A stretch of 55,173 bases of DNA from Candidatus Micrarchaeota archaeon (GTDB lineage: Archaea > Micrarchaeota > Micrarchaeia > Anstonellales > Bilamarchaeaceae), in the NCBI GenBank assembly GCA_043803165.1, contig JAZDKI010000020.1, positions 1 to 55,173 on the forward strand, read 5' to 3'. The position numbers and the translations under genes were made by a program. The notes under the pieces were generated by a model. It ran no database searches. It worked only from the letters and a program-made list of their open reading frames with translations, and was not told the DNA's origin. Below, piece by piece: positions 5,724 to 50,286 of this stretch. The first letter of the stretch is position 1. Each line of letters begins with the position of its first letter.

Positions 5724-6272
5724 ATGGGAGAAAGGACGTCCGGCCGGCTCAGGGGGCAGGCCGCTGTCAAGAGAACCCCGTTCTCAACCCGCAGCCTGCG
5801 CGGGCAGGCCGCGGTCGAATACCTGACCACCTACGGCTGGGCCCTGCTCGCCCTGGTGATCGTCATCGCCATCCTTGTATCGACCGGGATCTTCTCGCCT
5901 TCTTATCTTGTGGCTGAAGAGTGCAGCTTCGGGAACAACCTGAAATGCGAGGCGGCGGTATTCAACTCGGGCCCGGTCACGGATGTGCGCTTCAGCCTCT
6001 TCAACGGCCTTCCATACAAGGTGAAGGTGGTCTCGGTGAACCTCCAGACGGCGGAAGGGATCAGCGTCGACGGCTTCCCGCAAAACATCGAACTCGACAG
6101 CGGCGAGAAGTTCCTCTATGAAGGGACGACGAGCGAGCAGATACCGACAGGTGCCGTGAAGCGCTTCTCCGGGAACATCACTTATGTCTCATGCGCCAGC
6201 GAGCTCGGGCCCGAATGCAGCACCGTAGAGCATCCGTTATCCGGAAGGATGACCGCCAGAGTGATCGAATAA
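5724..6272 (+). CDS. archaeal type IV pilin-like protein (class III signal peptide)
   Basis: The sequence RGQAAVEYLTTYGWALLALVIVIAILV matches the class III signal pattern: a basic leader, G/Q cleavage context, E at +5 and a hydrophobic helix. The true start is uncertain because an RGQAAV motif occurs twice. Confidence 0.7.
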   Translation: MGERTSGRLRGQAAVKRTPFSTRSLRGQAAVEYLTTYGWALLALVIVIAILVSTGIFSPSYLVAEECSFGNNLKCEAAVFNSGPVTDVRFSLFNGLPYKVKVVSVNLQTAEGISVDGFPQNIELDSGEKFLYEGTTSEQIPTGAVKRFSGNITYVSCASELGPECSTVEHPLSGRMTARVIE

Positions 6273-9646: not shown

Positions 9647-10336
9647 CTATTTCTGGGCGATCGCGGCCTTAGGTTCGGATATCACTACCGGATCCGCGAA
9701 AAGCCTTCCGTTCACTGCGGTGGCCCCGTAGACCAGGAAGCCGTCGCTTCTTTTGCCAAGGACATTCCCGTTCTTATCCAGCGGGAAGATGTAGGCGGTC
9801 GTATAATTGGCCTTGCCCCCATCGAGGTCCATAGTCCCCCTTTCGATTAGGAACTTGACCCTTGCGACGCTTTCCCCGGCAGTTTCCTTGACAAGCGCGA
9901 CGAAATCTGTGAGGTTCGCACCTCTGAGTTTCCCATTGCTAGATACGGTTAAATTCTTCAGATTCGGTTCGATGCTGACAACGAACATGGCTTCTCTCGC
10001 AACCGTGATGCCATGGAAATATTTGTATCCATTCGAAGCACAGGCCAGTTTCTCGTTTGTGCTGTATCTTGCAGTTTCCTTCTCAAGCTGCGCGATCGTC
10101 CTATCCAGCTTATAACCCTGGACCTTCGTGCTGCCGATCATCGTCATGGCAACGTTCTGCGCTCTCGCTTCCCTTACCGGGTATGATACTGGAGAAAAAG
10201 CTAATCCAAACGCCAATCCGGCAGCAAGCACCGCAGCTCCTGCACGCTTCCAAAATCCCCTTTTAGGCATTACGGAATCCGTTTCCCTCGGTTCCTGCCT
10301 TTTCGGAGCGTTTTCGAGTCTTTTCATTTCCCCCAC
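9647..10336 (-). CDS. hypothetical membrane-anchored or secreted protein
   Basis: The N-terminus has a basic stretch followed by a hydrophobic helix (AGAAVLAAGLAFGLAFSPV). The rest looks beta-rich and has no recognised domain. Confidence 0.6.
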   Translation of the reverse strand: MGEMKRLENAPKRQEPRETDSVMPKRGFWKRAGAAVLAAGLAFGLAFSPVSYPVREARAQNVAMTMIGSTKVQGYKLDRTIAQLEKETARYSTNEKLACASNGYKYFHGITVAREAMFVVSIEPNLKNLTVSSNGKLRGANLTDFVALVKETAGESVARVKFLIERGTMDLDGGKANYTTAYIFPLDKNGNVLGKRSDGFLVYGATAVNGRLFADPVVISEPKAAIAQK

Positions 10337-10427: not shown

Positions 10428-10440
10428 AAAAATAAAAAAA
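10428..10440 (-). terminator. oligo-T terminator after the giant gene
   Basis: The minus strand reads TTTTTTTATTTTT, 15 nt after the stop at 10455-10457. Confidence 0.45.
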
Positions 10441-10454: not shown

Positions 10455-13400
10455 TCACTTGACCTTGGGCTTCGGCGGTTTAGCCATCGCGTTGACCAAT
10501 CCCATGATCTTTTCCCTGAGATTGGCGTCCCTCTTCTTCGGATCCCCGAAAAGCTCCGTCTTGAGCATCAGCCCGTCGTCGGTCTCCTTGACCAGCTTCT
10601 TGACGCCGACGATGGCCCCGCTGCCGCCGTTCTTCACGACGTTGTGAAGGTATGCCTTCACCGAGCCGTCGAAGCTCTCCCTGCTCCCTTCATGGACCTT
10701 CTCGAGGACCGCGTTCGCGATGGCGGTCTTCGGGTCCTTCAATATGGCCTCTATCGCCTTATCGACGAGGGCGGAGAATCTCTGGTTGTCGGGGTCTTCG
10801 AAGAACGTTATCGATTCTTCGTTCGGCACCGGCACATTCCCGGGCTCCGGCTTGACCACGGCTCCAATGCTTCCCTTGGCCTTCAGCCCGGTCTTATCCT
10901 TGTCTGCGAGCATCTCGTCATCGACCGCCTGCATGAGGCTTGGGCTTGGGTTCCTGGCCTTCGGGTCGAATTCGACCTTAATCTCTATGCCGTTCACCAG
11001 CAGCTCCTTGAGATGCAAGGCGAACATGTCGCTTTTCAGGACAGAGAACCTGGAATGCCTGTCGTTGAACATCAGGAGGGTCTCAAGCAGTTCAGGGTAT
11101 TCGATGAGTGCTCCCCTGGCCTCGTGGTTCCCGAGCTTGATGTTCGGCAGCAGCTTCTTCGCCGCCTGCTCGACCTTGTAGTCCTCCTCCCTATCCGTGA
11201 AATACGCGCTCTTCCTGGTCTTGGCGATCTTGAAGGACCACTCCAGCGTCCTTTTGGAGACCGGTGCGTTGCGCGCGACGCTCACCAGCCACTTGTTGAC
11301 CAGCCCGGGTGTGATGCCCGTGATTGGGCTGGGGGCTGGCGCCTTCGCCTGGCCTTGCGTTCCGGTTTTTTTCTGGGCAGCGGCAGCCTTGTCTGCTTCG
11401 GCCTTGGCCTCATTCAATAGGGCGACCAGGTGCACCTTCAGCTCCGATGGCGTGGCCTTCGAGAGTATCTCCTCGCGCTTCTTGGCCGCGTCCTCCTTCA
11501 TATTGGCTTCGACCTGGGGGTCCGCCGGCCTGACGGCTACGGGGGCGGCGGGCGTTCCCAGCTTGGCCTGGACGACCTTTTCGCTCAGCGCCGACACGAG
11601 TCTTTTCGTATCCTCGTTCATATATTCAGGGGTCACGAGCTTCTTGGCTGAAAGGGTCCTCCTGGCGCGCTCGAAAGCGATCTTGAGGACCTCTCCGCTC
11701 GTAGCGGCCACTTCGGTCCAGGCGTTTATGAAATCATCGCGCCTCTCCCGTTCCAGGAACTCGGGCGCCCTAGCCTCCTTATCGCAGAATGGCGCAAGCA
11801 GGGCGGTCGCGTTCTTTTTCTGGGTAGAGAGGAAAGTGGCGCTCTCCCTCGTCTTGATGCCGAAGAGGATGATGTTCATCCTCTCATTGGCGGTGACAAG
11901 GTACCACTCCTTCCTGAACATGGAGTTGTTCCCGCTCAGGTATTCGTATGTGAGCGATCCTCCCCCATCCTTGTACTCCTTGATCGCTCCGACGAATGCG
12001 TCGACCTTGAGCGGATTCAGGTAATACCCCTTGTCCTTGAAATCCTCGGTCTTCTTGATCGCTATCGTGCAGCAGACCTTATCGCCCATCACCCATTTCG
12101 GGCTTTTCTTGCCCAAGCGGTAGCCCTTGAGGTCGGCGAAGTTCGTGAGCATCGCCGGCTTCTGGGCGTCCGTGTTCCACGATGGCAGGTTCATGCAGGA
12201 TCGGGGCAGTTTCATGAGCCGGAGCCTCTTTTCCATCTGCTCATCCGTCTCTTCCTTATTGCCCCTCGTCATGCCCCTCTTGAGCGGCCTGGTGCAGTGC
12301 TCCGGCCTCTGGCCTATGTCCCTCTTCTCGAGCACGCTGTATCCGAAGCGCTTCTCATAGAGGTATCTGAAGAGCGGGGGGGTGTCCTTGACGAATTTCG
12401 CGTACGAAGAGGACTTTAGGTGGAACATCTCCATTATCTCCGGCACGCTCCTATTCTTGAAGTTGGCCGGGTGGTCGTTGATTATCCACACCCTTGGCTT
12501 CTCTTTGTCAAGGGGCATCAGCCATGTCCATGGCCTGACCGCGCTTCCCCGGAAGACATTGTCCACGCGGTACCATCCCGCTTCCTTGGAAAAAAGCCTG
12601 CCCCAGGTCTTGGGCTTGAGCAGTTTCGCCCCGCCTAAGAACGCGGGCTTGTCCGGGTAGAAGACATGCCTCTCCTTGGTGTAATACGGGCCACCTGCGA
12701 TGGCCGTGGTGTAGTTCGGAGGCCAGAGGTAGCTGAACCATCTCCATGAGCCGTCATTGGCCTTCGACGGCGCGCTGGAAACGAGCCAGCCCATCGCGAT
12801 GGACGTGATATAGAATATCCCTGCGAGCCCGCCTACGCCCCGCAGCCAGTTCCAAACCTTTTTCGGCTTCCTGTCCGTAGGCCGGTGGTCGGCATCAGGC
12901 TTCTTGGTCCGCCGGTGCCATGGGTTTGTCCATATCAGGTCGATTTTCTCCATGACCAATTCATAATACCAGCCTCCGAAGCCCGCCATGAGCAGGAACG
13001 GCTTGGCCAGCACCCTCTTGATCTTCTCCCAGATCGCCTTGTGCGGAGGGAGCGCTTTCGGCGGCGGGGTCTCTATCCTGCCCGCGCGGGTCTCGAACGT
13101 GATCCTGGCGACCACCCATGCGAAGCGGCTCAGCCCGCCGACCTGTTGCGTGGACTGCGACCCGCGCAGGGCGTTCACTGCGCGCTGGGCGACCTTCTTG
13201 AACGGCTTTCCGTATATCTCATGGATCGCATCGATGGATGCGTTGACGTCCGAGGCCCCATACTGGAGGGTGGTCATCTCCATGACCACTTTGCGGAGCT
13301 CTTTTTTGACATCATCCGGGAGCGGGGCCTTTTCCACGCCCTCCCTGAAGCTCGCAAGTTCGCCTTTGAATACATTCTCATTGAATCCGTAGATCGCCTG

Positions 13401-15329
13401 ATCCCTGGCCAATGCGCCTTCCTGCCTGTTCAAGGCCTTCGTGAGCACTGCCACCGATTCCGGATCCTTCGCCTCCAAGGCGAGCCTGCTGCGCAGCGCG
13501 AGCTGGGCGGATCCGCCCTTGGCATCGGTGATCTCTTTATGGAGCGATTCGACCAGGCCCGTATCCAGCAGCCTCCCGAACGCCTCGATGCATTTGCTCC
13601 TCGAATCGGCTACTTTCCTCGCGCTGGCGAGAAGCTCCATCAGGTGCGGGTTGGGCATCCTCTCGCCCATCTTCTCCATCACTTGATCGAGGCCGGATAC
13701 CGACTTGTCGCGGTTGTGGAGCAGTGCCCTGAAATAATCCGAAAGGTCCACGCAGACCCTTTCCGGGGATTCGTTCGCTACATACTTCTGGAAGCGCGCG
13801 ACCTCCCTCTCCAGCGCAGCGTTGCTCGCCGCGACGGTCCTTTCCGCCTGCGCCTTCGTCTTATCGGCGGTTGTCTTGTTCTCTTGCGCCAACTCGCTCC
13901 TTTTGGAAGCATCCGCTATCAGATCCTCAAGATCGGCGCTCCCCTTCATGTGCCTGGTGCCGTCGATCTCCACCGATCCTTTGGAATTCGCGGTCTTCCT
14001 GGCCTGGAGCAGATAGTCCAATCTGGCCTTCGCCTCGTTGAATTCGCCCTCAGTGGCTGATGTATCATTCCTCACGGCCTCCAGCCTGCCATCCGCCTGC
14101 GTGATAAGCTCCTCAAGCTCGGCGCTCCCCTTCATGTGCCTGGTGCCGTCTATCTCCACCGATCCTTTGGAATTGGCGGTCTTCCTGGCAAGAAGCAGAT
14201 AATCGTGCCTGCCTTGCGCTTCGATGATCTCATTTTCAGCTGCGGTGACATTAGCCTCCGCGGCCACCTTTGCGGTGTCCGCGGCCTCCAGCCTCGCCCC
14301 TGCATCGGCGACCGCGGCCTCCCTCTCCTTCTTCCCGGCCTCGAAAATCTCCAGGTAGCCATTGCCCGGGACATGGTCGAGTTCGTCCATCTTGTCCGAA
14401 GGCAGGGAATTGATGGCCTGCGACCTCGGGAGGAGCACGTTGCACGCATCCTCTATGGGCTCCTTTGAATTCTCGAAGAGCTCTGCGTTGAGGAACGAGC
14501 TGTCGACCACATTCCGATACGCCAGCTCCTTCCAGTCTGTGAACGTCCTGCCTTGGGCTGAGAGCGCCTTGCAGACGTTTCCGACGAACTCTCCCTGGTC
14601 AGCCTCTTCCGTCTTGGTCATCTTCGCGACGCTGACCAGGAACTTGAAAAACGCCTCTGGAGGTGTCGGAAGGTCCTTGGGCCATGCGCCGCGGTCGCGG
14701 TCCGCCTCCCAAAGCTCCACTGCGTTCAATGTCTTCATATCCTTCGTCTGTTTTTGGTCCTTGGAGGTCCCGGTCACTTCCCTCTCTACGGGAGTGCCCA
14801 TCATGGCGGTGTATATAATGTCAAGATCATGGGTGGTGAAATCGCCGATCATGAAGGTCGGGGATTCCCTGGCCCTTGTCAGAGTGTCTGCGAGGATCTC
14901 CCTCGTCCTTTTCATGTCCTTGGCATACTCCTCGTCGACCTCTTCGCGGGGCGTCGGTATCGGGGGGTTGCGGATGACGCTGATCCACGCGGGCTGCGTG
15001 AAGACATCCCTCATGATGCTGGCTGGCGCGGCCGCGTCGGCGTCCCTGGAATATTCGGTCCTTATCGCTGCGAAAAGGTGGTTGTGGAACGTCTGCATCT
15101 CGTCGCCCCTCGCGGTTGTGACATCGACCAGCGCCTCGTCTTTCCTCTGCCCCGCCGGCGCTTGCGCTGGGTTGTTTTCCGTGGCCGGGGCATGCCCCGA
15201 GAAGGCGCCCGCTACGGCGCTTCCCGTATTCCTTACCCTCTGCATTATGCCTACCTTGGCCTGCTGCTGGTCCCTGACCTGCGCCCTCTCCAATCCTGTC
15301 GCTTCCTGCTGACCTGGTTTGTCCGCCAT
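10455..15329 (-). CDS. giant orphan protein (1,624 aa) with coiled-coil N-terminal part and two central TM helices
   Basis: A single uninterrupted ORF with a GGTGG Shine-Dalgarno-like element 8 nt upstream of the ATG. Coiled-coil-like A/E/K-rich segments include an internal 62-aa duplication. Hydrophobic helices are FLLMAGFGGWYYELV and VGGLAGIFYITSIAMGWLV. No catalytic motif is recognised. Confidence 0.85.
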   Translation of the reverse strand: MADKPGQQEATGLERAQVRDQQQAKVGIMQRVRNTGSAVAGAFSGHAPATENNPAQAPAGQRKDEALVDVTTARGDEMQTFHNHLFAAIRTEYSRDADAAAPASIMRDVFTQPAWISVIRNPPIPTPREEVDEEYAKDMKRTREILADTLTRARESPTFMIGDFTTHDLDIIYTAMMGTPVEREVTGTSKDQKQTKDMKTLNAVELWEADRDRGAWPKDLPTPPEAFFKFLVSVAKMTKTEEADQGEFVGNVCKALSAQGRTFTDWKELAYRNVVDSSFLNAELFENSKEPIEDACNVLLPRSQAINSLPSDKMDELDHVPGNGYLEIFEAGKKEREAAVADAGARLEAADTAKVAAEANVTAAENEIIEAQGRHDYLLLARKTANSKGSVEIDGTRHMKGSAELEELITQADGRLEAVRNDTSATEGEFNEAKARLDYLLQARKTANSKGSVEIDGTRHMKGSADLEDLIADASKRSELAQENKTTADKTKAQAERTVAASNAALEREVARFQKYVANESPERVCVDLSDYFRALLHNRDKSVSGLDQVMEKMGERMPNPHLMELLASARKVADSRSKCIEAFGRLLDTGLVESLHKEITDAKGGSAQLALRSRLALEAKDPESVAVLTKALNRQEGALARDQAIYGFNENVFKGELASFREGVEKAPLPDDVKKELRKVVMEMTTLQYGASDVNASIDAIHEIYGKPFKKVAQRAVNALRGSQSTQQVGGLSRFAWVVARITFETRAGRIETPPPKALPPHKAIWEKIKRVLAKPFLLMAGFGGWYYELVMEKIDLIWTNPWHRRTKKPDADHRPTDRKPKKVWNWLRGVGGLAGIFYITSIAMGWLVSSAPSKANDGSWRWFSYLWPPNYTTAIAGGPYYTKERHVFYPDKPAFLGGAKLLKPKTWGRLFSKEAGWYRVDNVFRGSAVRPWTWLMPLDKEKPRVWIINDHPANFKNRSVPEIMEMFHLKSSSYAKFVKDTPPLFRYLYEKRFGYSVLEKRDIGQRPEHCTRPLKRGMTRGNKEETDEQMEKRLRLMKLPRSCMNLPSWNTDAQKPAMLTNFADLKGYRLGKKSPKWVMGDKVCCTIAIKKTEDFKDKGYYLNPLKVDAFVGAIKEYKDGGGSLTYEYLSGNNSMFRKEWYLVTANERMNIILFGIKTRESATFLSTQKKNATALLAPFCDKEARAPEFLERERRDDFINAWTEVAATSGEVLKIAFERARRTLSAKKLVTPEYMNEDTKRLVSALSEKVVQAKLGTPAAPVAVRPADPQVEANMKEDAAKKREEILSKATPSELKVHLVALLNEAKAEADKAAAAQKKTGTQGQAKAPAPSPITGITPGLVNKWLVSVARNAPVSKRTLEWSFKIAKTRKSAYFTDREEDYKVEQAAKKLLPNIKLGNHEARGALIEYPELLETLLMFNDRHSRFSVLKSDMFALHLKELLVNGIEIKVEFDPKARNPSPSLMQAVDDEMLADKDKTGLKAKGSIGAVVKPEPGNVPVPNEESITFFEDPDNQRFSALVDKAIEAILKDPKTAIANAVLEKVHEGSRESFDGSVKAYLHNVVKNGGSGAIVGVKKLVKETDDGLMLKTELFGDPKKRDANLREKIMGLVNAMAKPPKPKVK
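13925..14189. repeat. intragenic direct duplication (two 79-bp copies offset by 186 bp)
   Basis: Positions 13925-14003 and 14111-14189 differ at 3 of 79 positions. The encoded repeat is ARKTANSKGSVEIDGTRHMKGSA(E/D)LE(E/D)LI. Confidence 0.9.
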
Positions 15330-15461
15330 CCTGACCCACCTCGATTTATCGTGATTATTTGTAGCATATTATGAGTGATGGTCTTTTTAAAAGTATGTAG
15401 ATTTTGATGGTTCTTCGTGCACTATATGAAAAGCGCCGGCGGCTGCCGTATGGGGCCCCGC

Positions 15462-16862
15462 CTACTCCAATATCCGTTCTACTATCTTCTGGGGGTCGAA
15501 CCGCTCCAAATCGTCATACCCCTGGCCCATGCCGACGTATATTATAGGCACGCCGGTGGCTTTGCCAAGCGAGAGCATCGTCCCGCCCTTCGGGTCGCAG
15601 TCGAGCTTTGTCAGTATCACGGCGTCTATTCCGACCTCGCGGTTGAAGGCGGACACCTGCTCTATTATCGCGTTCCCGGCTATGCTCTCCCCGATATAGA
15701 CCTTGAGGTCCGGCTTGATGACGCGCCCCATCTTCTTCATCTCGTTGAGCAGGCTGATGTTGGTGTCCTGCCTGCCGGCCGTGTCGATGAGGACTGCGTC
15801 TATCCCGTGCGCTTTCGCGTAATTCACTGCGTCGTATGCGACCGACGTCGGGTCGCTGCCGTATTCCCTCTTTATCATCTTCACGCCCAGCCTTTGGGCG
15901 TGGACGTCCATCTGCTCGATCGCCGCCGCGCGGAACGTGTCGGCCGCGGCGAAAACGACCTTCTTACCGCTTTTCTGCAGCAGCCTCGCCACCTTGGCTA
16001 TCGTCGTGGTCTTTCCCGCCCCGTTTATCCCGATGAACATGATCTTCAGGGGCTTCTCCACCTCTTCGAGCCTCTCTTCGAACGTGAAGGCCTTATCGTT
16101 AGCGAGGATCGAAAGGAGCGTCTCCTTGATCGACCCGCTCACAAACGAGTGCAACTTGTCCTTTGGGACAATCGAACCGATGAGCCTTCCGCGCAGGTCG
16201 GCGGAGATGGCTTCTGCGACCCCGAGGTCCACATCCGCCTCCAGGAGCTCGAGTTCAAGGCCATCAAGCATCTCCTTGACATCTCCCTCGTTGATCTCGA
16301 CTTCGCGCGTGATGATGCTTTTGACGCTCTCGACTATCCCGAGCTTCATCCTCTCCCTGGGCTTCTCCTCTTTCACCGCGATTTTATGCGGAGCGGGCGC
16401 CTCCGCAACCTTTTTCGGCGCGATGATATGCATCTGAGGGATCCCGGGCTCGGGCGCTTTGGAAGGGGCTGGAGCCATCAGCGGAACCGGTTTCTTCTCT
16501 ATCGGCGCTTCTTCCTTCACTATCCCGGTCTCGGGTTTTTTCTCTTCGATTTCCGGTTTTTTTATCCCGATCGGAGGTTTTCTCTCCGGCTTCCGCTCCT
16601 CCTTTTTCGGCTCGGCCTTTATATGCGCGGCCGGCTTCTCTTCGGGTTTAGGATGAGCCTCTTTTTTTGCCGGAGACGCTTTCTCTTTGGTTGCGGGCTC
16701 TTTCTTTTTCGATTCCGCCTCGATCTTCACGGCCGGCTTCTCTTCGATTACGGCCTGCGCCGGGGCCTCTTTGACGGAAATCTCCTCTTTCGGCTTCTCC
16801 TCCTCCTTCTTGGTCAGGCCGTCTATGAAGCCGCCGATCTTCTTCTTGAGGAAATCAAACAT
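15462..16862 (-). CDS. ftsY: signal recognition particle receptor FtsY
   Basis: NG-domain motifs are present: GINGAGKTTTIAK, DTAGR and TKLD. The start is placed at MFDFLKKK (ATG 16862) rather than the ORF-track start at 16922. A K/E/P/A-rich linker of about 190 aa precedes the NG domain. Confidence 0.9.
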   Translation of the reverse strand: MFDFLKKKIGGFIDGLTKKEEEKPKEEISVKEAPAQAVIEEKPAVKIEAESKKKEPATKEKASPAKKEAHPKPEEKPAAHIKAEPKKEERKPERKPPIGIKKPEIEEKKPETGIVKEEAPIEKKPVPLMAPAPSKAPEPGIPQMHIIAPKKVAEAPAPHKIAVKEEKPRERMKLGIVESVKSIITREVEINEGDVKEMLDGLELELLEADVDLGVAEAISADLRGRLIGSIVPKDKLHSFVSGSIKETLLSILANDKAFTFEERLEEVEKPLKIMFIGINGAGKTTTIAKVARLLQKSGKKVVFAAADTFRAAAIEQMDVHAQRLGVKMIKREYGSDPTSVAYDAVNYAKAHGIDAVLIDTAGRQDTNISLLNEMKKMGRVIKPDLKVYIGESIAGNAIIEQVSAFNREVGIDAVILTKLDCDPKGGTMLSLGKATGVPIIYVGMGQGYDDLERFDPQKIVERILE

Positions 16863-17002
16863 GGGCTTTTCCACCTGTCTTCCACCGGACAACAGCAGGG
16901 AACCCGGTTCCCTGCGCCCCATTGTTCGAATCGTCGAACAATAGGGAAGCCCGCAAAACTTCGTCCGGTGATACTGAGAAAAAAGGATGAGAAATAAAAA
17001 AA

Positions 17003-27868: not shown

Positions 27869-28435
27869 ATGCTCGTAGTCTTCGAAGGGATAGACGGTTG
27901 CGGGAAGGACACCCAGATCAAGCTGCTTCTCGAGAAGCACCCTGAGGCCGTCGTCTTCAAGTATCCGACCAAGAACTTCCAGATGCTAAACGACTATCTG
28001 GAGAAGAAGCTCGAGCTTGCCCCCACATCCCTTTTCCTCCTTTTCCTCTCGGACATCGCGAACGAGCAGGCGAAAGTGAAGGCGGCCCTCGAGACCGGCA
28101 AGATGGTGGTATTGGACAGGTATGTCTTCTCCACGATAGCCTATGAGCTCAACGAGCTCCATTATCCGCAGGCGAAGAAGATCGTCGAAGGGATAAACTT
28201 CATCAAGCCCGACTGCGTATTGCTGCTCGACATAACCCCCGAGGTCTCACAGGAGAGGAAAAGCAGGCAGAAGCAGCTCGACCGGTATGAGGAGAACAGG
28301 GAATACCTCCGCAGGGTGCGGGAAGACTTCATCAGGCTCGAAGAGGAAAAGTTTTTAACACCGAATTGGCACAAGATAGATGCGACAAAGGGCGTGGAGG
28401 AAGTGTTTTCAAAGATCCTGCGCGTCCTGAAGTAG
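27869..28435 (+). CDS. tmk: thymidylate kinase
   Basis: The P-loop MLVVFEGIDGCGKDTQ and the DRY motif (VLDRYVFS) are present. Length is 188 aa. Confidence 0.85.
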   Translation: MLVVFEGIDGCGKDTQIKLLLEKHPEAVVFKYPTKNFQMLNDYLEKKLELAPTSLFLLFLSDIANEQAKVKAALETGKMVVLDRYVFSTIAYELNELHYPQAKKIVEGINFIKPDCVLLLDITPEVSQERKSRQKQLDRYEENREYLRRVREDFIRLEEEKFLTPNWHKIDATKGVEEVFSKILRVLK

Positions 28436-28439
28436 CAAA

Positions 28440-28671
28440 GCTCCGTTCGTCTAGAGGCCTTTTGGCTTCTGCATCTCTCATGCCAAAAGCCCTGGGAAAA
28501 TGCGTGAGGCAGAAAAAGTCGGAAGGCCGGGCTGACCGGTCAAGGATAGTGGACTTTCAAGCACCTTTTTGAAAAAAGGTGCTCCAAAGACTTTATTATA
28601 AGTTTTGGGGCGCCTTTTACCAAAAGGCGCAAAGTCCTCCATCGACCTGGGTTCAAATCCCAGACGGAGCA
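28440..28671 (+). tRNA. tRNA-Glu(UUC) interrupted by two introns (D-loop and anticodon loop)
   Basis: Acceptor GCTCCGT (28440-28446) pairs perfectly with ACGGAGC (28664-28670), followed by discriminator A. The T arm is CTGGG-TTCAAAT-CCCAG (28647-28663). The D stem is GTCT/GGAT. The anticodon arm GTGGA-CTTTCAA (28549-28560) closes with TCCAT (28638-28642), giving anticodon TTC. This fold needs removal of about 80 nt in the D loop (~28460-28540) and about 77 nt at or next to position 37/38 (~28560-28637). The mature length is about 75 nt, and no CCA is encoded. Confidence 0.7.
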
Positions 28672-28732
28672 TCCCACTTTTTTGAAAAAAGTGGGGTCAA
28701 AAACAGATTGTTTGTCGACCCTCAGGGTCGAC

Positions 28733-29560
28733 CTAATCCCCTTTCCTTAATAGGAACAACTTGCCCATTCCATACTCAAGCTCGTCCTGCCCCTCCAGCC
28801 TGAGTCCTGCCGCTTCTGCCATCTCAATGTTGGGGGCAGGCTCGTTCTCTAGAACGAAATGCACGACGCATCCATCCGCGTTCACCAATCTCCCAAAGTG
28901 CTCCTGGGCATTAAACTCAATGAACTCTTTTATCTCTCCATATAACGGCATGTCTGTGATATGTTCGCCCTGCCTCGCAAGAATATTCCAATTAAGCTGA
29001 TGTGTTGAAGATCCTAGAGGGAACCCGAAGAACATGGAAGTAAAAACGATGTCGAATTCCCCAATATCCCTTCTTACGTTTTCATCTAATTCATAAAGAG
29101 AAACCGGTATGAACCGCCTTCCTTCCTCATGGTCGCGCATAAGACTTGGACTTAGGGCTGGATCCACTCCGACATATGAAGATAAATTGATCCCCAATCC
29201 TCTCAATATCTTGAGTACTTCGGTCTCTCTATTCTCGGTCGGCCCACAACCGACATCTATCAAACTCTTCCCTTCCAGTGCGCCGACGAGCACTGAGAGC
29301 TTGCGCAGCAATTTCTCCCCCCTGTAGGAACCTATAGAAACACCCTTGCCAGGTATCTGCCAACTATAGTTTATCGGATCTGGTGATAGCTTCAGCGAAT
29401 TGAGTAGCCGTGCAATCCTGGCGACTCCATCCGGCATCCTGGGGGTTATCTCGATGGGCTTGCGCTGCGATACCACACATCTTCTTAGGATGCAAAGTCT
29501 TATAATAACACTTTTAGCAACTATAAACCGGAATTTCCCGAAAGCACTATTAAATTTCAT
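28733..29560 (-). CDS. SAM-dependent methyltransferase-like protein
   Basis: The motif I-like sequence SLIDVGCGPTE and a downstream acidic/VGVDP block suggest a methyltransferase. GC is lower than in neighbouring genes. The N-terminal 40 aa are doubtful, and an internal start at MPDGVARIA is possible. Confidence 0.5.
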   Translation of the reverse strand: MKFNSAFGKFRFIVAKSVIIRLCILRRCVVSQRKPIEITPRMPDGVARIARLLNSLKLSPDPINYSWQIPGKGVSIGSYRGEKLLRKLSVLVGALEGKSLIDVGCGPTENRETEVLKILRGLGINLSSYVGVDPALSPSLMRDHEEGRRFIPVSLYELDENVRRDIGEFDIVFTSMFFGFPLGSSTHQLNWNILARQGEHITDMPLYGEIKEFIEFNAQEHFGRLVNADGCVVHFVLENEPAPNIEMAEAAGLRLEGQDELEYGMGKLFLLRKGD

Positions 29561-29565
29561 GCGAA

Positions 29566-29766
29566 TTGTTGGGGTCTATGCGCATCCTGATAATAGCGCT
29601 TCTCATGTTTCCGCTATCGCTAGCGGTAAACACCACATACCGCCTCGACATGTCCATGGCATACACATGCCCCGGCGACATCCTTTGGGTGAATGCCGCT
29701 GCTTCGAACGGCGATCCAGCGCCCGATTTGGAGCTCCGCCTTCACGTTCCTAATGCTTATCGCTAG
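29566..29766 (+). pseudogene. 5' fragment of a paralog of the 32231-32821 secreted-protein gene
   Basis: MRILIIALLMFPLSLAVNTTYRLDMSMAYTCPGDILWVNAAASNGDPAPDLELRL aligns with MRLFAISLLMFSVSLAANTTYRLDLEMHAECPGDMLIVDAVASNGEPAPDVELRL. Similarity ends at about 29745, and a stop follows at 29764. Confidence 0.65.
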
Positions 29767-30053
29767 TTCATCAAATGATTTTCTAATGGCTTCAAGTTGA
29801 GCCAGATTGATTACTTTGAGTATATCATTTTTGTTTATCTTCACCATCATTCCCACCTCATGCATCCAAGATACGGTTCTTCATCCGTAAAAGCAAGTAT
29901 AGTAGGTGGGTCCGTAAAAAGCTTTAGACTTATCGGGATGGTTTATATTCTTAATGATGGTGTAGAATATTATCAAAATTTACGTCATAAAACAGAGATT
30001 TTAACTCTAGATAGGATTCTCAGACGGAGCATTTTTCTCTCTAAAAGGAGACG

Positions 30054-32928: not shown

Positions 32929-35900
32929 ATGGCGGATGGTATTCGCAGGCATATACCTGTCATCCTGGTCCTAGCGGTTTCGCTGTGTTTTTTCGGCTGC
33001 CTCGAGCAGCTCCAGTCGTTTTTCGGCGGGCAAAGCGTTGGACCCGAAGACACATTCGGGCCGAGGCTGGACGCCATGAACAACCAGATAGCGTCAGCAA
33101 GCACGGCACCGAACGTCGCATCGCTTCGCACGCAGGTGGAAGCTATCGAATCCGAGATCGAATCGGACGGCAATTTCCCGCTATACCTCCATCTCACAGA
33201 AGCCCAGCTCCTCACCCTGGACATGATCGGCCTCCACCTCTCCTATGTCGAGGAAGTCGGAAAATACTCGGAAGGCGTGGACTGCGGCAGGGACTATTCA
33301 TCGCTGTTTTCCCAGATGGAAGGGGCGGAAGCGAAGATGGACGAAGCCCAGCGCAAGGTATCGGCATACATTTCGGCAAACCCGGGCTCGACCGCGGAGA
33401 AACTCAAGGCCCGCCTGGATTCGATCGATGCTTCCGGGATGGGCATATTCGTCGTGATGATGGAGCGGGATATCGGCCGGGACTGCCTCGAATCCGAGAC
33501 CCCCGCCCAGGCATATGCGATTCCGATCTCCCGCGAGGACGCGATACGCCTCGTGGTGAGCGAAGTCGTCGGCTCCAACGATTACTACGTCTTTTCCCCA
33601 GGGGAGGATCCCCTTCCTGCAGGCACGGTGGTGACATCAACGCGCGGGGAGAAGGATTTCAACTTCACCTTGGACGGCGATACGTGGTTCTTTTTCGTAG
33701 ATACGGCCCCGCAAGCGCCTTTCGCGCACGACGCCTTTTTCGTATTCGTCGATGTGGAAAGCGCGGAATTCACGGTCTCCAACGAATCGTTCTACCCGAT
33801 CATCGACGGCGTCTCGTATTTCCCGGGGATCGAAGACCGCACTGACGCATATTGGAGGGTATATCCTGATCCTTCAGAAGGCAACCTGAGCATGGGTCTC
33901 TCCGGACAAACCCACACATCCACCCGGCTCGGGTTCCCGGCATACGCGATAGCGAACGTTCCAGATGGGACCACGGTCCCAGTGGCGCAGGAGCGATGCT
34001 GCGAGGGGGTCGGCAAGAAGCGCGCCCTGATAGTGACAGGCTACGACGAGCCCATGTTCCGGGGGGATACGAAGAGGATGTACGATTATCTCATCGGGCA
34101 GGGTTACGCTGACGGCGATATCATATACCTTACAGCCAAAGCGAATGAATCCAACAGCGACGGCCAGACGACCCTGGCAAGCCTCACGGACGGTTTCAAC
34201 ACGCTGATGCGCAGCTCGGTATGCTGCGACAAGGTCTTCATCTACGTCTCGACGCACGGCATGTCCACGTATTACTACAAATACCTGAACATACGGACAG
34301 GGGAGGCGAAGTGGGTCCCATCGGTGGCGAGCTTCGGGGCAGACGTCCCGAACTGGATATTCGCCGGTGAATACAAGAAATTCCACTGGGTCAACATGAA
34401 CCCGCGCTTCCGTAAGGCGACGCCGGGCGGAGGCATCGAGGAGGGCGGGAGCGCGCAGGGCGTGGCGCAGGTCTTCGACTCCCAATTCGACCTGTGGCTG
34501 GACGGCATCAAGTCCTGCGATTTAACATTCATGTATTTCTCGTGCTACAGCGGGGCGGCCTCAGGCAATCTCAAAGGGCCTGGAAGGACGATAATAACCC
34601 CTGTCGAGGACAATCCGGCCTGGGGGCTGACACGCCCCTATCAGAATATGGGGGCGGGGGGCGTCTTCAGCCACTTCTTCCTCCAGGCCAAGACCAACGC
34701 CTCAATCAGCGCCGAAGCCGACAAGGACGGGACGCCCGGCGTCTCGGACAAGGAAGCCTATGAATGGGCGAAGCCAAAAGCGAAAACCTTCATCAGCACC
34801 AATTTCCATGAGAATAACAGCGCCACCTGGACCGATCCGGGTCCGTGCAGGTGCTGCTATGTGCCCTGCGACGAATCCACCAGTTATCGGTGCGTCGTCA
34901 AGGAAGGCAACAAGACCGACTGCCCGGACTGCAAGAAGGTCGGGGACTACTGCGGGCCGGATCTGAGCCCAGAAGCCCCATATGACCAGCCTCCACAGAC
35001 CGGCAACGGGACGACGGAAGGCAACGGCACCGGCCAAGAGCCGCCCGAAGAGGATGTGCCCCCGGTATGCGGCGACGGCAAGGTCACGGGCAATGAAGGC
35101 TGCGACTACGGCAGCACAAACACCAACAAATGCTCCGAGGGCCACTACTGCCATGACAGCTGCGTATGCAAGAAGCTCGAGACATCCGTGGTCTGCGGAG
35201 ACGGCAAGATATCCCTCCCGAACGAGGAGTGCGATGGGGGGAATGTGAAATTCAACATCTGCCCGACCGGCTTCTCCTGCAAGATATGCAAGTGCGTCCA
35301 GACGCAGGGCCAATGCGGGGACGGCTTGGTGGATCCCCCTGAGGAATGCGACCACGGCAACAGCTACACCGACGACTGCTCGATGGGAAAGACATGCCAC
35401 GACTGCAGATGCTATCTCCCTGAGGATGTGCCGGAAGACGGGCTGCCTCCTGGGGAAGCCTACTGCGGCAATGACGAGCAGGAAGGCGATGAGGAATGCG
35501 ACGGAAGCGATGATCTTGCCTGCGGGGATGACGAATACTGCTCCGGATGCGTCTGCGTAGAGGACACCGGATGCGGCGATGGCGAACGCGAAGGCAACGA
35601 GGAGTGCGACGGAACGGGTGATCTCGCCTGCGGGGAAGACGAGGTCTGCGGCCCGGGCTGCACCTGCGTGGATGAGGCTGCCGAGTGCGGCAACCAGCAG
35701 GTCGAAGCCGGGGAAGAATGCGAGGACGATTCCGACTGCGGATCAGGAGAGACCTGCGACCAATGCCTCTGCTGGGAGGAGCCCGAATACTGCGGGGACG
35801 GGAAAGTGAACGGAAACGAGGGGTGCGATCCCGACGCTTCGCCGACAGGATGCAGCGAGAACCAGGCATGCGGATCTAACTGCGAATGCGTATCGCCTCC

Positions 35901-36198
35901 GGATTTGAACTGCGAATCGGTCTGCGCCTTGACAAGCGGGGCCCAGGTAATAGCCAGCGGCCTGAGCTCCCAGAGCGAGTGCCAGGCTGCGGCATCCCAG
36001 TTCTTCACCAGCCAGACCTGCTACACCACCTGCAAGTACTCGTGGTTCTATCGGGTGGACAACATCGCAGGATTCGACAGCTGCTGCTGCGGGATGAAGA
36101 AGCAGTTCCCCTGCTCGGATTGCCCTGGCCAGAATCCCGTCTGCCCGCCATCGGAGACCACCTGCGCGGCGAACGCCCCGAGCTGGCATTCGCCCTGA
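32929..36198 (+). CDS. surface lipoprotein with legumain-like (clan CD, C13-type) peptidase domain and seven Cys-rich repeat modules
   Basis: The signal ends in the lipobox-like FFGC. The His block VFIYVSTHG (His codon 34254-34256) and Cys block FMYFSCYSGA (Cys codon 34543-34545) match the legumain/GPI8 pattern (FIYFTDHG / YIEACESG). Modules of the form CGDGxxxxxEECD run from 35068 to 35889. Confidence 0.75.
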   Translation: MADGIRRHIPVILVLAVSLCFFGCLEQLQSFFGGQSVGPEDTFGPRLDAMNNQIASASTAPNVASLRTQVEAIESEIESDGNFPLYLHLTEAQLLTLDMIGLHLSYVEEVGKYSEGVDCGRDYSSLFSQMEGAEAKMDEAQRKVSAYISANPGSTAEKLKARLDSIDASGMGIFVVMMERDIGRDCLESETPAQAYAIPISREDAIRLVVSEVVGSNDYYVFSPGEDPLPAGTVVTSTRGEKDFNFTLDGDTWFFFVDTAPQAPFAHDAFFVFVDVESAEFTVSNESFYPIIDGVSYFPGIEDRTDAYWRVYPDPSEGNLSMGLSGQTHTSTRLGFPAYAIANVPDGTTVPVAQERCCEGVGKKRALIVTGYDEPMFRGDTKRMYDYLIGQGYADGDIIYLTAKANESNSDGQTTLASLTDGFNTLMRSSVCCDKVFIYVSTHGMSTYYYKYLNIRTGEAKWVPSVASFGADVPNWIFAGEYKKFHWVNMNPRFRKATPGGGIEEGGSAQGVAQVFDSQFDLWLDGIKSCDLTFMYFSCYSGAASGNLKGPGRTIITPVEDNPAWGLTRPYQNMGAGGVFSHFFLQAKTNASISAEADKDGTPGVSDKEAYEWAKPKAKTFISTNFHENNSATWTDPGPCRCCYVPCDESTSYRCVVKEGNKTDCPDCKKVGDYCGPDLSPEAPYDQPPQTGNGTTEGNGTGQEPPEEDVPPVCGDGKVTGNEGCDYGSTNTNKCSEGHYCHDSCVCKKLETSVVCGDGKISLPNEECDGGNVKFNICPTGFSCKICKCVQTQGQCGDGLVDPPEECDHGNSYTDDCSMGKTCHDCRCYLPEDVPEDGLPPGEAYCGNDEQEGDEECDGSDDLACGDDEYCSGCVCVEDTGCGDGEREGNEECDGTGDLACGEDEVCGPGCTCVDEAAECGNQQVEAGEECEDDSDCGSGETCDQCLCWEEPEYCGDGKVNGNEGCDPDASPTGCSENQACGSNCECVSPPDLNCESVCALTSGAQVIASGLSSQSECQAAASQFFTSQTCYTTCKYSWFYRVDNIAGFDSCCCGMKKQFPCSDCPGQNPVCPPSETTCAANAPSWHSP
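35068..35889 (+). repeat. seven tandem Cys-rich modules (CGDGK-x4-NE(E/G)CD-...-C-x-C), 35-50 aa each
   Basis: The first Cys codons of the modules are at 35068, 35194, 35314, 35464, 35572, 35686 and 35791. The pattern matches the Cys-rich repeat known from myxobacterial and eukaryotic surface proteins. Confidence 0.8.
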
Positions 36199-36429: not shown

Positions 36430-36765
36430 AAAAGCGGGCTTCAGTTCGGCCTGCGGGCCAAATCAGCCCACAACCCGTGAGGCACTACACAGAACCCGAA
36501 ACCTGGGAGTTGTGGGCTTCCCGGTTGGCCCTGACGGATAAACAAGGAGCCTGCGCCATCTGCTCGGTCCTGGGTCTTGCAAGCACGGCACAATAAATTT
36601 AGGGCTGCTCCTTCCGGCCTGACCCGGTTCATCTATTGTCCCGCCACACAAGGCAGGACGTCAGCGCTTAAGGCGCAGGGCATGCCTATCCGGCAAAACG
36701 CCCCGGGCATTCGAGCCGCCTAAGGGGATATGCGGTATCGGGACCCCTAGCCCCGCTCTAGCCCA
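36430..36765 (-). ncRNA. signal recognition particle RNA (7S RNA); ends approximate (+/-30 nt)
   Basis: The minus strand of 36601-36625 reads GGGTCAGGCCGGAAGGAGCAGCCC. This is the universal SRP RNA helix 8 with GGAA tetraloop (compare E. coli 4.5S GGUCAGGUCCGGAAGGAAGCAGCC). An adjacent helix-6-like hairpin reads GTCCTGCC-TTGTGT-GGCGGGAC. Long-range helix-5 pairings are CCCTGCGCC/GGCGCAGG and GGATA/TATCC. A/T-rich boxes lie upstream (36767-36797), and a T4 run marks the 3' end (36430-36433). Confidence 0.7.
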
Positions 36766-36855
36766 CATATATATGCCGATGGCGCTATTTAATTATGCCG
36801 GAATGGCGGGCATGCCATTTATAAAGTGTTTTAGTTAGTATATTAATGTGTAATA

Positions 36856-45730: not shown

Positions 45731-46171
45731 TCAGCACGACGCAGCTGGCAGTTCCCTTCCGGCCCTGGCTTCCGCGGCACTCAGGACCTCGGCGATATCA
45801 TACCTGCCAGCCTCGATCGCGATATCCCTGGCGGTCTCCCCGCAGATGCTCCTCGCCAGCACATCCGCCCCCCTTTCGATGAGAAGCTCCACGATCTCCT
45901 TGTACCTGCCGCCCTTCTCCCCGCCCCGGGCGGCCCACATCAGCTTGGTCAGCGAGTTGGTGTCCCGACCGTTGACATCGGCGCCTTCATTGACGCTTTT
46001 TTCAGCCCGCTCAAAATCCCCCTTCATGCAAGCCATTTTCAAATCTCTATCTATAGGGCGTCTCTGCGTATCCGGGTCAGACGGCGCGGTGCACCGGAAC
46101 CTCCCTGAATCATCTTCCCTTCTGGATTCGGTCAGATCAGGACGCAGCAATCTCTCAGTTCTATGCCTCAT
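45731..46171 (-). CDS. ankyrin-repeat protein
   Basis: Ankyrin-like segments are ACMKGDFERAEKSVNEGADVNGRD, TKLMWAARGGE...IVELLIERGADV and ETARDIAIEAGRYDIAEVL. The N-terminal 45 aa are doubtful. Confidence 0.6.
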   Translation of the reverse strand: MRHRTERLLRPDLTESRREDDSGRFRCTAPSDPDTQRRPIDRDLKMACMKGDFERAEKSVNEGADVNGRDTNSLTKLMWAARGGEKGGRYKEIVELLIERGADVLARSICGETARDIAIEAGRYDIAEVLSAAEARAGRELPAASC

Positions 46172-46268
46172 CCCCCCACCCCCACACAGTTTTATTGAGA
46201 AAATGTGTTTAAAACACTATCTAAGGGCAGAAAAAAGGTAAAAACGTATCTGGATTGTGGGGATAATG

Positions 46269-46314
46269 AAAAAAATGCAGGAGGAAGACCCTCCGGGCAG
46301 TTCTGAGGTCTGCA
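46269..46314. repeat. island repeat copy A (5' box + 3' box, 46 bp)
   Basis: The copy reads AAAAAAATGCAGGAGGAAGACCCTCCGGGCAGTTCTGAGGTCTGC. AGACC(C)TC pairs with GAGGTCT as an imperfect inverted repeat. Confidence 0.7.
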
Positions 46315-46430
46315 AGAAAGAGACTATCCTTTCCTTCCGGCGCAGGTAAGGATAAGGGCGGACCTAATCTTTTCCAAAACTAGAGAATAGAAAACCGGCA
46401 TCTTAGCGCCGGAGACAAAAAAGGGAAAAA

Positions 46431-46793
46431 TCAGCCGGCGCTTGTAGAGCCGAAAGCCGCGACGCAATGATCCTTATCGGTCCCTGAGAACCGGTTGCAG
46501 AGCGTCATATCCCCATTGGTCTTGGCCACGGTGCCGTAGCATGACGGGATGTTCGGCAAGTTATCCAGCTGGTCGCACCAGTAGGTGTCTTGCGTGCGTG
46601 CTCCCTCCTCGGCCCTGCAGCCATCTATGCAGAACGAGCCGTTTCCTGAATTTCCAGGCTCGCACTGGGATACGCATCTTTGGAAATTCGCGCTTCCCTG
46701 GCCCTGGGGCGCGGCGGTTCCGTTGCCGGCACCCGGACTGGCGCATCCGGCCAGCATCAACCCTAGAATCAATACGAGACACAATCTTTTCAT
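46431..46793 (-). CDS. small Cys-rich putative lipoprotein
   Basis: The signal is MKRLCLVLILGLMLAGC (lipobox LAGC). The start is set at ATG 46793, although 46814 is possible. The mature part of about 100 aa contains 9 Cys. Confidence 0.65.
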   Translation of the reverse strand: MKRLCLVLILGLMLAGCASPGAGNGTAAPQGQGSANFQRCVSQCEPGNSGNGSFCIDGCRAEEGARTQDTYWCDQLDNLPNIPSCYGTVAKTNGDMTLCNRFSGTDKDHCVAAFGSTSAG

Positions 46794-46838
46794 GATGGCG
46801 GTAGTATCGGGCAAACTCTAATATGCTTTGCCAAAACC

Positions 46839-46997
46839 AAAAAATGCAGGAGGAAGACCCTGAGGCCACGGCTCGGGACAGGACCGTTTAGGCCCCGAGC
46901 CCAAGTCTCGAATCTCGCACCCCGCACAGATACTTGGTTTCAGGTCAGCAGAAACCCCCTGCCGATCCTCCGTTACCGAGGGCTGTTCTGAGGAGAG
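46839..46997. repeat. island repeat copy B (long form, ~159 bp)
   Basis: The 5' box AAAAAATGCAGGAGGAAGACCCT is identical over 23 nt to copy A. A central hairpin GGCTCGGG...CCCGAGCC is present. The 3' box GGGCTGTTCTGAGG (46978-46997) matches copy A GGGCAGTTCTGAGG. Confidence 0.65.
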
Positions 46998-47020
46998 AAT
47001 TATATAAATCTAGCTCTGGC

Positions 47021-47533
47021 TCACATCTTCTGGTATCCGAAGCCTTTTGATTCGTAAACGATCCTTGTTATCTCAGCGACGAAATCCCGGGCATCAGAAA
47101 GCACCCTGTCAGCCTCGGTGGAAGTTATCCCGCCCAACCCATATGAGGCCTTTATCCGTTCGCTTTTTGCATATTCCAGTGAATCGGAATATCTGCTGTC
47201 TAGACTTTTCGCCTTCTTTACGTATTCCAGATATTCTTTATCGACTTTCTGCCGCTTCACATAAAACACTTCGAAGGCAGCTATGGCGCACTCGTGCGAT
47301 CTGGCGTCTATGCCGATCAGCCATATGCTTGCCATAGTAGCATGGTACATGGCGTAATATGCGCAGGAAATCGTCCAGTCGAAGAATTTGTTGTCATTCA
47401 TGAGTTTCGCAGCAATCAGGTTCCTATTGGCCTTCTCCAGATGCTCTTCTGCCTTCTCGATGCTTGCCGGAACCTTCAGCAGCCTTTTAGGCACATTCGC
47501 GGCCCCTTCGAAACAGCGGTCGATCAGATTCAT
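47021..47533 (-). CDS. HEPN-domain protein (toxin partner of MNT)
   Basis: The 170-aa product has HEPN-like helices (AEEHLEKANRNLIAAKLM ... YYAMYHATMASIW ... LDSRYSDS). A 4-nt overlap links it to the upstream nucleotidyltransferase gene. Confidence 0.7.
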   Translation of the reverse strand: MNLIDRCFEGAANVPKRLLKVPASIEKAEEHLEKANRNLIAAKLMNDNKFFDWTISCAYYAMYHATMASIWLIGIDARSHECAIAAFEVFYVKRQKVDKEYLEYVKKAKSLDSRYSDSLEYAKSERIKASYGLGGITSTEADRVLSDARDFVAEITRIVYESKGFGYQKM

Positions 47534-50264: not shown

Positions 50265-50286
50265 CCCCTTTCGACCAAATCTATGG

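Follow-up and report, generated by a model that had tools for sequence, protein, structure and literature searches.

Contig JAZDKI010000020.1 of a Candidatus Micrarchaeota archaeon (assembly GCA_043803165.1), analyzed here from position 1 to 55,173 (the window), carries a single unbroken open reading frame (ORF) of 1,624 amino acids (aa), termed giant-1, and this locus raises the question of what a protein of such size, described in an earlier note as an orphan, is and does among housekeeping genes. As delimited by profile searches, giant-1 belongs to a small, sharply bounded, fast-evolving and uncharacterized family that is restricted to the Micrarchaeota, and its conservation points to a genuine, functional and presumably expressed gene that has been inherited vertically. 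The ORF starts with ATG, includes its stop codon (Table 1) and is the largest gene in the window, as had been stated, the runners-up being ORFs of 1,089 and 941 aa. Its GC content of 0.56 to 0.59 equals that of the bulk of the window and is thus core-like, in keeping with the initial description. The same description gave the gene its own Shine-Dalgarno-led start and a T-rich terminator, and both could be located, the former 7 nt 5′ of the ATG and the latter as an oligo-T tract 14 nt past the stop codon. The housekeeping setting was also confirmed, with FtsY, prefoldin alpha, eIF6 and L31e encoded upstream and two class I aminoacyl-tRNA synthetases encoded downstream.

Word-indexed protein searches were performed with three queries, namely, the whole giant-1 protein, an alignment of the full family and an alignment of the C-terminal domain. 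These returned the query itself or nothing, although exact look-ups place relatives in the same collection; an "only self" result is therefore no evidence for orphan status. A direct scan of reference genome contigs with the giant-1 protein likewise gave no match. Using the neighboring FtsY as bait, 80 loci were fetched and searched with giant-1 by tblastn, which identified homologs with E values down to 1e-92 and 21 to 33% identity, present as intact ORFs of 1,250 to 1,560 aa directly 3′ of ftsY on the same strand. The best FtsY relatives of the window were all from metagenome-assembled genomes of Micrarchaeota, so that the organism is a member of the small-genome DPANN archaea, in keeping with the suggestion that it might be a small-genome archaeon. 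A hidden Markov model (HMM) of the family detected giant-1 in 15 loci, each time directly downstream of ftsY on the same strand. No giant-1 was detected with this HMM in the Iainarchaeum, Altiarchaeota or methanogen loci fetched by FtsY, nor at the ftsY locus of Micrarchaeota whose FtsY fell below approximately 49% identity. A six-sequence giant-1 alignment used as a query for related loci returned four metagenome loci. Collinear homologs of 1,250 to 2,100 aa, with 17 to 33% identity, were found in approximately 20 related genomes or contigs. Locus L003 is that of Candidatus Bilamarchaeum dharawalense, which has been placed in the order Candidatus Anstonellales (PMC8561730).

To define the extent of the family, 1.84 billion cluster representatives (clusters at 50% identity) were scanned exhaustively with HMMER using a profile of aa 60 to 1215. 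The scan yielded 87 clusters at an E value of ≤1e-3, 84 at ≤1e-10 and 74 at ≤1e-30, with no matches beyond the family boundary and no leakage into other families. All family members are collinear over their whole length, and the window protein matched the family profile with 1,019 bits (E = 0) across profile positions 2 to 974. Every source name that was retrieved for the family reads "hypothetical protein" or "uncharacterized protein," and literature searches gave no description of it. The window protein itself has no relative above 50% identity in the HMMER scan or the protein searches and is known from one contig; a look-up of contigs that encode it gave no record. With syntenic orthologs in approximately 20 genomes or contigs and a family of 87 clusters, the orphan designation had to be abandoned. 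The ORF was found intact in relatives wherever the contig was long enough, rather than disrupted.

Among close giant-1 orthologs, the ratio of nonsynonymous to synonymous substitution rates (dN/dS) was 0.13 to 0.20, which corresponds to ordinary purifying selection. By region, dN/dS was highest in the helical segment that follows the N-terminal domain (0.20 to 0.29) and lowest in the C-terminal domains (0.04 to 0.14). The pairwise identities of giant-1 follow those of the FtsY NG domain (r = 0.80) but fall approximately five times faster, such that 94% identity in FtsY corresponds to 79% in giant-1 and 83% to 46%. The pair formed by the window and L001, the closest genome, is an outlier, with 86% identity in FtsY and 28% in giant-1. 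Between these two genomes the flanking genes are well conserved (FtsY, 86%; ValRS-type synthetase, 81%), whereas the three genes lying between them are not: giant-1 shares 28 to 33% identity, a 229-aa protein (p229) shares 28%, and similarity of a helical hypothetical protein (p322) is undetectable. Both p229 and p322 diverge as fast as giant-1.

The statement that giant-1 contains no known domain withstood searches by Pfam, NCBIfam, PDB sequence, profile and fold. The best Pfam match of the window protein was below the cutoff (E = 0.15), NCBIfam and PDB sequence searches were null, and a Pfam scan of 36 family members gave only isolated, single-member noise of the coiled-coil type. Searches of giant-1 against PADLOC and PHROGs gave no match. 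When PDB was searched with profiles of the whole family, of the N-domain and of the C-domain, only noise came back, which for the whole family consisted of coiled coils at E > 0.05. In Foldseek searches of the AlphaFold models, in which both halves were compared with PDB and the C-terminal half with BFVD, nothing was found at E ≤ 0.001; the N-terminal half gave only nonsignificant coiled-coil matches (axonemal and Rad50-type) at E ≥ 0.04. Motif scans of giant-1 for Walker A ([AG]xxxxGK[ST]), HExxH, CxxC, GxSxG and LPxTG found none of these. Profile searches thus assigned the protein to no well-known family, be it SMC-like or an adhesin.

AlphaFold2 models were generated from 31-sequence alignments (mean predicted local distance difference test [pLDDT] values of 80.5 for aa 1 to 720 and 72.2 for aa 700 to 1624), and residue and helix statistics were collected across 65 family members. 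The segments that emerged are listed in Table 1. A disordered N-terminal tail, in which the motif MA(G/D)...TG(M/L)xxAQxxD is conserved at the extreme N terminus of the family, leads into an all-alpha globular N-domain bearing the motifs PTPxEE, DLDIIY, PPEAFFxFLE and EGEFIG, with PGxGY next at aa 321 to 325. P127, E129 and R143 of the N-domain are near-invariant (60 to 62 of 65 members); the domain has no Pfam match in any member scanned and no significant PDB sequence match. The long alpha-helices that follow constitute the most variable part of giant-1 and, according to the model, probably form an antiparallel helical stalk. A tandem duplication within the stalk has a core of 36 aa (87% DNA identity) at the conserved KGSVxLxG motif and is specific to the window, as relatives are single-copy in the alignment; Tandem Repeats Finder found no repeat in the DNA. 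The N-terminal 750 or so residues had been described as a region with long coiled-coil segments; besides the long helices at aa 325 to 720, they include the disordered aa 1 to 65 and the globular aa 70 to 310.

Amphipathic helices at aa 760 to 826, including W787 (conserved in 53 of 65 members), precede the hydrophobic helix that is the candidate membrane anchor. Beyond it lie a W/Y/P-rich linker and an alpha/beta domain with the motifs PWTW, INDxxDIP, YGVG, FFQER, DGLKLN and RDxF, in which D952, R960, E992, D1099, N1105 and D1110 are highly conserved. Four cysteines of this domain, C1012, C1045, C1086 and C1087, follow an all-or-none pattern, with all four present in 34 of the 65 members and none in 19. 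After a variable linker comes the C-terminal alpha/beta domain, with the motifs GWxxDxTxEY and DYxPF. A W/Y/K/P-rich region of approximately 800 aa had been described for this half; such a composition is limited to approximately aa 700 to 1000, aa 852 to 938 are predicted to be disordered, and the rest contains two confidently modeled globular domains at approximately aa 939 to 1229 and 1359 to 1624.

That giant-1 is a membrane protein, as originally suspected, is plausible in light of a family-wide survey of hydrophobicity and charged flanks. The sole transmembrane (TM)-like segment of the window protein is at aa 832 to 850, with a Kyte-Doolittle score of 1.71, and in nearly all 65 members the most hydrophobic 19-mer is found at the same aligned site, just past a K/R-rich stretch in the middle of the protein. 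This anchor helix scores at least 1.6 in 23 of the 65 members, 1.2 to 1.6 in 36 and less than 1.2 in 6. Two hydrophobic helices had been proposed around aa 760 to 830; one is TM-like, as given above, but the other, at approximately aa 774 to 792, scores only 0.88, and the matching segment has a family median of 0.65 and attains 1.2 in no more than 11 of the 65 members. On average, 4.65 K and R residues are present in the 20-aa N-terminal flank of the anchor versus 2.06 in the C-terminal flank, with the former number exceeding the latter in 57 of 65 members (positive-inside asymmetry), and the C-terminal flank carries a conserved aromatic belt of the WYxPxxWP type. The combination of a K/R-rich N-terminal flank and a W/Y-rich C-terminal flank fits the pattern of a signal-anchor with the N terminus inside and the C terminus outside. 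No N-terminal Sec or twin-arginine translocation (Tat) signal peptide was found in giant-1, whose N terminus is hydrophilic and disordered and whose first hydrophobic segment is at approximately aa 830.

We infer the topology and, above all, the role of giant-1 from its architecture and context. The reading that we favor, with slightly less than even confidence, is that giant-1 is a lineage-specific envelope scaffold anchored in the membrane with its N terminus in and its C terminus out (N-in/C-out). It would be a single-pass, type II-like membrane protein with approximately 830 cytoplasmic residues, comprising the disordered motif-bearing tail, the all-alpha domain and the long helical stalk. 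One Gly/aromatic-rich hydrophobic helix would cross the membrane, and approximately 770 residues would lie outside, comprising the aromatic/Pro-rich linker, the Cys-quartet domain (probably with two disulfides) and the second globular domain. As the quartet does not have CxxC spacing, two disulfides in an external domain would fit better than a zinc site. Given that there is no signal peptide, we propose that insertion would be cotranslational, through the signal recognition particle (SRP), FtsY and Sec, once the internal signal-anchor emerges. The protein could then serve as a structural scaffold of the envelope that joins the cell surface to the cytoplasmic helical stalk, and in most relatives it may act together with a co-encoded, unrelated polytopic protein, termed giant-2. 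The neighbors giant-2, a membrane protein, and p229, which has a Tat/Sec-type signal, point toward an envelope context. Physical contact with a host cell is a necessity for DPANN archaea, and a role of giant-1 in such contact, along the lines of the cell-cell interaction factor that had been suggested, would be plausible.

Several observations weigh against an anchored scaffold of this kind. The hydrophobicity of the candidate anchor helix is marginal, with 42 of 65 members scoring below 1.6, and Lys is often present in it. An additive estimate on the Hessa scale gives approximately +1.6 kcal/mol for the helix of the window protein, a value at the borderline of membrane insertion. In the putative external half, N-glycosylation sequons show no excess (0.37 per 100 aa versus 0.43 expected), a count that is uninformative about location. 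The putative external domains are the most constrained, and their dN/dS gives no hint of diversifying selection, to which contact proteins are often subject. Finally, giant-2 is missing from the window and, in the closest genome (L001), from the giant-1 locus.

A number of these points would suit a giant-1 that is wholly cytoplasmic or peripheral, which we regard as somewhat unlikely. The hydrophobic or amphipathic helices of its middle part would then be buried in the core or would hold it to the membrane in-plane or as a hairpin (N-in/C-in), metal would be bound by the Cys quartet, and the stalk would be cytoskeletal, membrane-shaping, or chromosome- or ribosome-organizing. The missing signal peptide, the marginal, frequently Lys-containing helix and the unremarkable sequon count agree with such a cytoplasmic scaffold, as do the net positive charge of the C-terminal half and the strong constraint on the C-terminal domains, which is as for an internal machine. 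In 11 of 65 members a second, moderately hydrophobic helix is located 55 to 70 aa upstream of the anchor, as a hairpin would have; however, with a median score of 0.65 for this upstream helix, a hairpin is no feature of the family. The K/R asymmetry in 57 of 65 members and the W/Y belt on the C-terminal side resemble a real signal-anchor, the cysteines do not have the CxxC geometry, and the neighboring giant-2 and p229 are membrane or secreted proteins, all of which argue against the cytoplasmic reading.

A more ambitious version of the membrane-anchored reading is that giant-1, usually with giant-2, forms an undescribed, Micrarchaeota-specific trans-envelope apparatus of new folds. In such an apparatus the stalk and globular domain would be joined through the membrane to surface domains, providing symbiont-host attachment or a cytoplasmic connection. 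Its assembly would be linked to the SRP receptor gene, next to which giant-1 would have remained for as long as the clade has existed. We consider this extension unlikely.

The position of giant-1 relative to ftsY, the SRP receptor gene, was examined in 22 contexts, and ftsY was directly upstream on the same strand in approximately 20 of them. This includes all FtsY-fetched loci that carry giant-1, as well as loci found via giant-1 itself (L081 to L085 and L087). The S19e-L39e-L31e-eIF6-LX-PfdA-FtsY cluster precedes giant-1 whole in L087. In L086 a 472-aa gene precedes giant-1, and P0097, the most divergent member examined, is not beside ftsY. The spacer between ftsY and giant-1 is 60 to 240 nt, or 0.8 to 1.1 kb in two loci. 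Downstream of giant-1 the locus varies: most loci have giant-2, the window and L001 have p229 and p322, and L014 and L087 have other large ORFs. The adjacency to ftsY could reflect functional coupling, as a signal-anchor protein this large would depend on SRP and FtsY, or could equally be the frozen trace of an insertion made long ago where a conserved gene cluster ends.

The noncoding DNA upstream of giant-1 is conserved better than the protein. Its layout consists of CACGAARAACCA-N6-ATACTTTTAAAAAG, CTAC approximately 22 nt further down and then a leader of approximately 35 nt, which in the orthologs compared ends in AGGTG 6 to 8 nt before the ATG. This layout is common to approximately 12 genomes, including those of orthologs whose proteins are only approximately 25% identical, and both promoter motifs are single-copy in the 55-kb window. 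The conservation and uniqueness of these motifs in the window argue that giant-1 has its own dedicated promoter, and cotranscription with ftsY is not required. A scan of the window for sigma-70 promoters and intrinsic terminators gave chance-level results only; these models do not apply to archaea. The cross-genome conserved element CACGAARAACCA, just 5′ of the giant-1 TATA box at 15408-15420 (-) and at the equivalent positions in A10, may be a transcription factor site or part of the 3′ end of the ftsY transcript.

Giant-1 could instead be a partner that FtsY has in this lineage only, such as a tether to the membrane or a platform for cotranslational targeting, which we consider improbable. 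A partnership would account for the constancy of the ftsY-giant-1 junction, the sole invariant feature of a locus whose downstream side varies, seen even in loci that were found without the ftsY bait, and we know of no SR-beta-like membrane receptor for FtsY in archaea. However, the conserved promoter and spacer of giant-1 make cotranscription dispensable, P0097 is located elsewhere, and Micrarchaeota with a more distant FtsY do not have giant-1 at this position. Evolution at five times the pace of FtsY is also unexpected for a housekeeping partner, and, as compact related genomes generally keep gene order, the adjacency may reflect an old insertion. That giant-1 is a true orphan, an artifact of assembly or annotation, or a mobile or viral gene of recent acquisition is refuted, as the points that had spoken for it (word-indexed searches giving self or nothing, no relative above 50% identity and a single contig) are outweighed by the relatives that those searches missed in their own collection, by 87 clusters with synteny, vertical inheritance and intact syntenic orthologs under purifying selection, and, for a mobile, prophage, viral or defense-system origin, by the core-like GC content, the null PADLOC and PHROGs searches and the lack of a BFVD fold match for the C-terminal half.

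Among the genes that adjoin giant-1, giant-2 (1,300 to more than 1,880 aa) was found next after it in 10 related loci. It comprises a cytoplasmic part of approximately 1,200 aa followed by two to three strong TM helices (Kyte-Doolittle scores of up to 2.56), with no Pfam match. A comparison of giant-1 with giant-2 by hhalign gave a probability of 0.1%, and thus the two are not paralogs. In L009 (15883-21473) giant-2 is split into three ORFs of 175, 420 and 1,316 aa, and the intact copy in L013 (1,862 aa) is 82 to 84% identical to it, which points to frameshifts, pseudogenization or assembly errors in L009. The N-terminal signal of p229 reads RRGFFK in the L001 ortholog.

Table 1 Features of the giant-1 locus (positions are those of the window unless a locus is named)
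Feature	Position	Strand	Basis or remark
giant-1 coding sequence	10455..15329	-	ORF; orthologs collinear over full length
giant-1 promoter region: upstream element GCACGAAGAACCA (15408-15420) and BRE/TATA-like element ATACTTTTAAAAAG (15383-15396)	15383..15420	-	Cross-genome conservation
Shine-Dalgarno-like AGGTGG	15336..15341	-	Direct reading; AGGTG kept at equal spacing in orthologs
Oligo-T tract T7-A-T5, candidate terminator of the archaeal type	10428..10440	-	Direct reading
aa 1-65, disordered N-terminal tail	15135..15329	-	pLDDT <50
aa 70-310, all-alpha globular N-domain	14400..15122	-	pLDDT mostly >90
aa 325-720, long alpha-helices of 64, 57 and 45 residues	13170..14357	-	AlphaFold2 secondary structure
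Tandem duplication, 62-aa period, approximately aa 349-480	13890..14285	-	Protein-level comparison
aa 829-853, hydrophobic helix, candidate membrane anchor	12771..12845	-	Kyte-Doolittle score; position conservation
aa 854-938, W/Y/P-rich juxtamembrane linker with WYxPxxWP-type motif	12516..12770	-	Composition; predicted disorder
aa 939-1229, alpha/beta domain	11643..12515	-	pLDDT 85-98
aa 1230-1358, variable A/K/P-rich linker, largely window-specific insertion	11256..11642	-	Low-confidence model; alignment
aa 1359-1624, C-terminal alpha/beta domain	10458..11255	-	pLDDT 86-97
ftsY (SRP receptor)	15462..16922	-	Pfam SRP54, SRP54_N; conserved upstream neighbor of giant-1
p229, 229-aa protein downstream of giant-1	9647..10336	-	N-terminal Tat/Sec-like signal: KRGFWK, then hydrophobic stretch
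p322, helical hypothetical protein without hydrophobic segment	8645-9613	-	Between p229 and ValRS-type gene
giant-2 examples	L003:15705-21350, L013:15316-20901, L036:15888-21164, L006:5891-11137, L082:6986-11764		

Other parts of the window were also noted. The region from 46000 to 55173 has a low GC content (0.44 to 0.51 versus approximately 0.57) and looks like an accessory or horizontally acquired island. Its cargo includes a pair formed by a HEPN protein and a minimal nucleotidyltransferase (47021-48156), a regulator with a double winged helix-turn-helix (48314-49312) and a protein combining a helix-turn-helix with Fic (50287-51660), and it also encodes an HTH_10 protein and a B3_4-domain protein. 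An ORF of 182 aa at 5724-6272 (+) has a type IV pilin-like signal of archaeal class III, in which RGQAAVEYL precedes a helix of very high hydrophobicity (Kyte-Doolittle score of 2.7); the motif LRGQAAV occurs twice near its N terminus, and it has no Pfam match. The second-largest ORF, of 1,089 aa at 32929-36198 (+), likewise has no Pfam match. For the SRP RNA at 36512-36766 (-), the best model is Bacteria_large_SRP (85.9 bits) rather than an archaeal one, even though the DNA is that of an archaeon. A local dip in GC content to 0.479 at 28001-30000 surrounds a 275-aa ORF (28733-29560, -) without a Pfam match.

Giant proteins of unknown function are in themselves no surprise in DPANN genomes. 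What appeared to be a one-off ORF has become a defined target, with approximately 87 clusters, two confidently modeled domains without a fold match in PDB or BFVD, a conserved dedicated promoter, an address beside ftsY and a frequent partner in giant-2. These features could be exploited by proteomics, cryo-electron tomography and heterologous expression in the small number of Micrarchaeota cocultures that exist. To our knowledge, no identified protein is known to make or organize host contact in Micrarchaeota, and the literature searched named none. Should giant-1 be only a cytoplasmic scaffold, the result would be the more modest one of a new lineage-specific structural protein. A caution also follows for homology searches, as a word-indexed one reported no relatives for a protein that has dozens.

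Several known systems were compared with giant-1. The long helices probably fold back and flank globular ends, as in SMC and Rad50 proteins, and Rad50 and MukB are among the weak Foldseek matches; an SMC/Rad50-type ATPase was rejected on account of the lack of a Walker A motif and of any SMC_N or AAA Pfam match, with Foldseek E values of 0.7 to 1.2 that reflect the coiled coil only. An archaeal S-layer or secreted surface protein was rejected for want of an N-terminal Sec or Tat signal peptide. A membrane remodeler like dynamin, mitofusin or atlastin was rejected because giant-1 has no P-loop, its all-alpha N-domain has no fold match and a second TM helix is absent in most members. Like type II signal-anchor proteins, giant-1 has no cleavable signal and, on the reading favored here, would have an internal hydrophobic helix flanked by basic residues on the inside and by aromatic ones on the outside, with a large ectodomain bearing conserved cysteines at the C terminus. 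These proteins are a topological class and not a homologous family, however, and the N-terminal cytoplasmic part of giant-1 is unusually large for it (approximately 830 aa), with a marginal anchor.

By analogy of architecture and setting, the nearest counterparts would be the giant proteins, likewise lineage specific, that other archaeal symbionts with reduced genomes have at their surface or in their membrane, namely, the SPEAREs and the giants of Candidatus Sukunaarchaeum mirabile. SPEAREs are named for their serine protease, adhesion and restriction endonuclease domains. The SPEAREs of Nanohaloarchaeota have been summarized as surface proteins that exceed 5,000 aa and have a supposed role in the invasion of hosts (bioRxiv 10.1101/2025.05.02.651781). 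As far as that description goes, they resemble giant-1 in being very large and lineage specific, in occurring in DPANN archaea with reduced genomes and in their presumed surface location and role in the relationship with the host. Unlike SPEAREs, giant-1 homologs span 1,250 to 2,100 aa, with an N-terminal half that is mostly alpha-helical, no recognizable Pfam domain, the SPEARE ones included, in any of the 36 members scanned, and no detectable homology to any annotated family. Candidatus Sukunaarchaeum mirabile encodes adjacent giant membrane proteins of unknown function, each with at least four predicted TM helices (bioRxiv 10.1101/2025.05.02.651781). These resemble the giant-1/giant-2 tandem in being rich in alpha-helices, without homologs, equipped with internal TM segments, placed side by side on one strand and hypothesized to have a role in the membrane or host association. 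They differ in that giant-1 has one marginal helix and belongs to another lineage, the comparison being one of descriptions and not of sequences. What is known is the phenomenon of giant envelope proteins in DPANN archaea; what is new is an uncharacterized family with apparently new folds.

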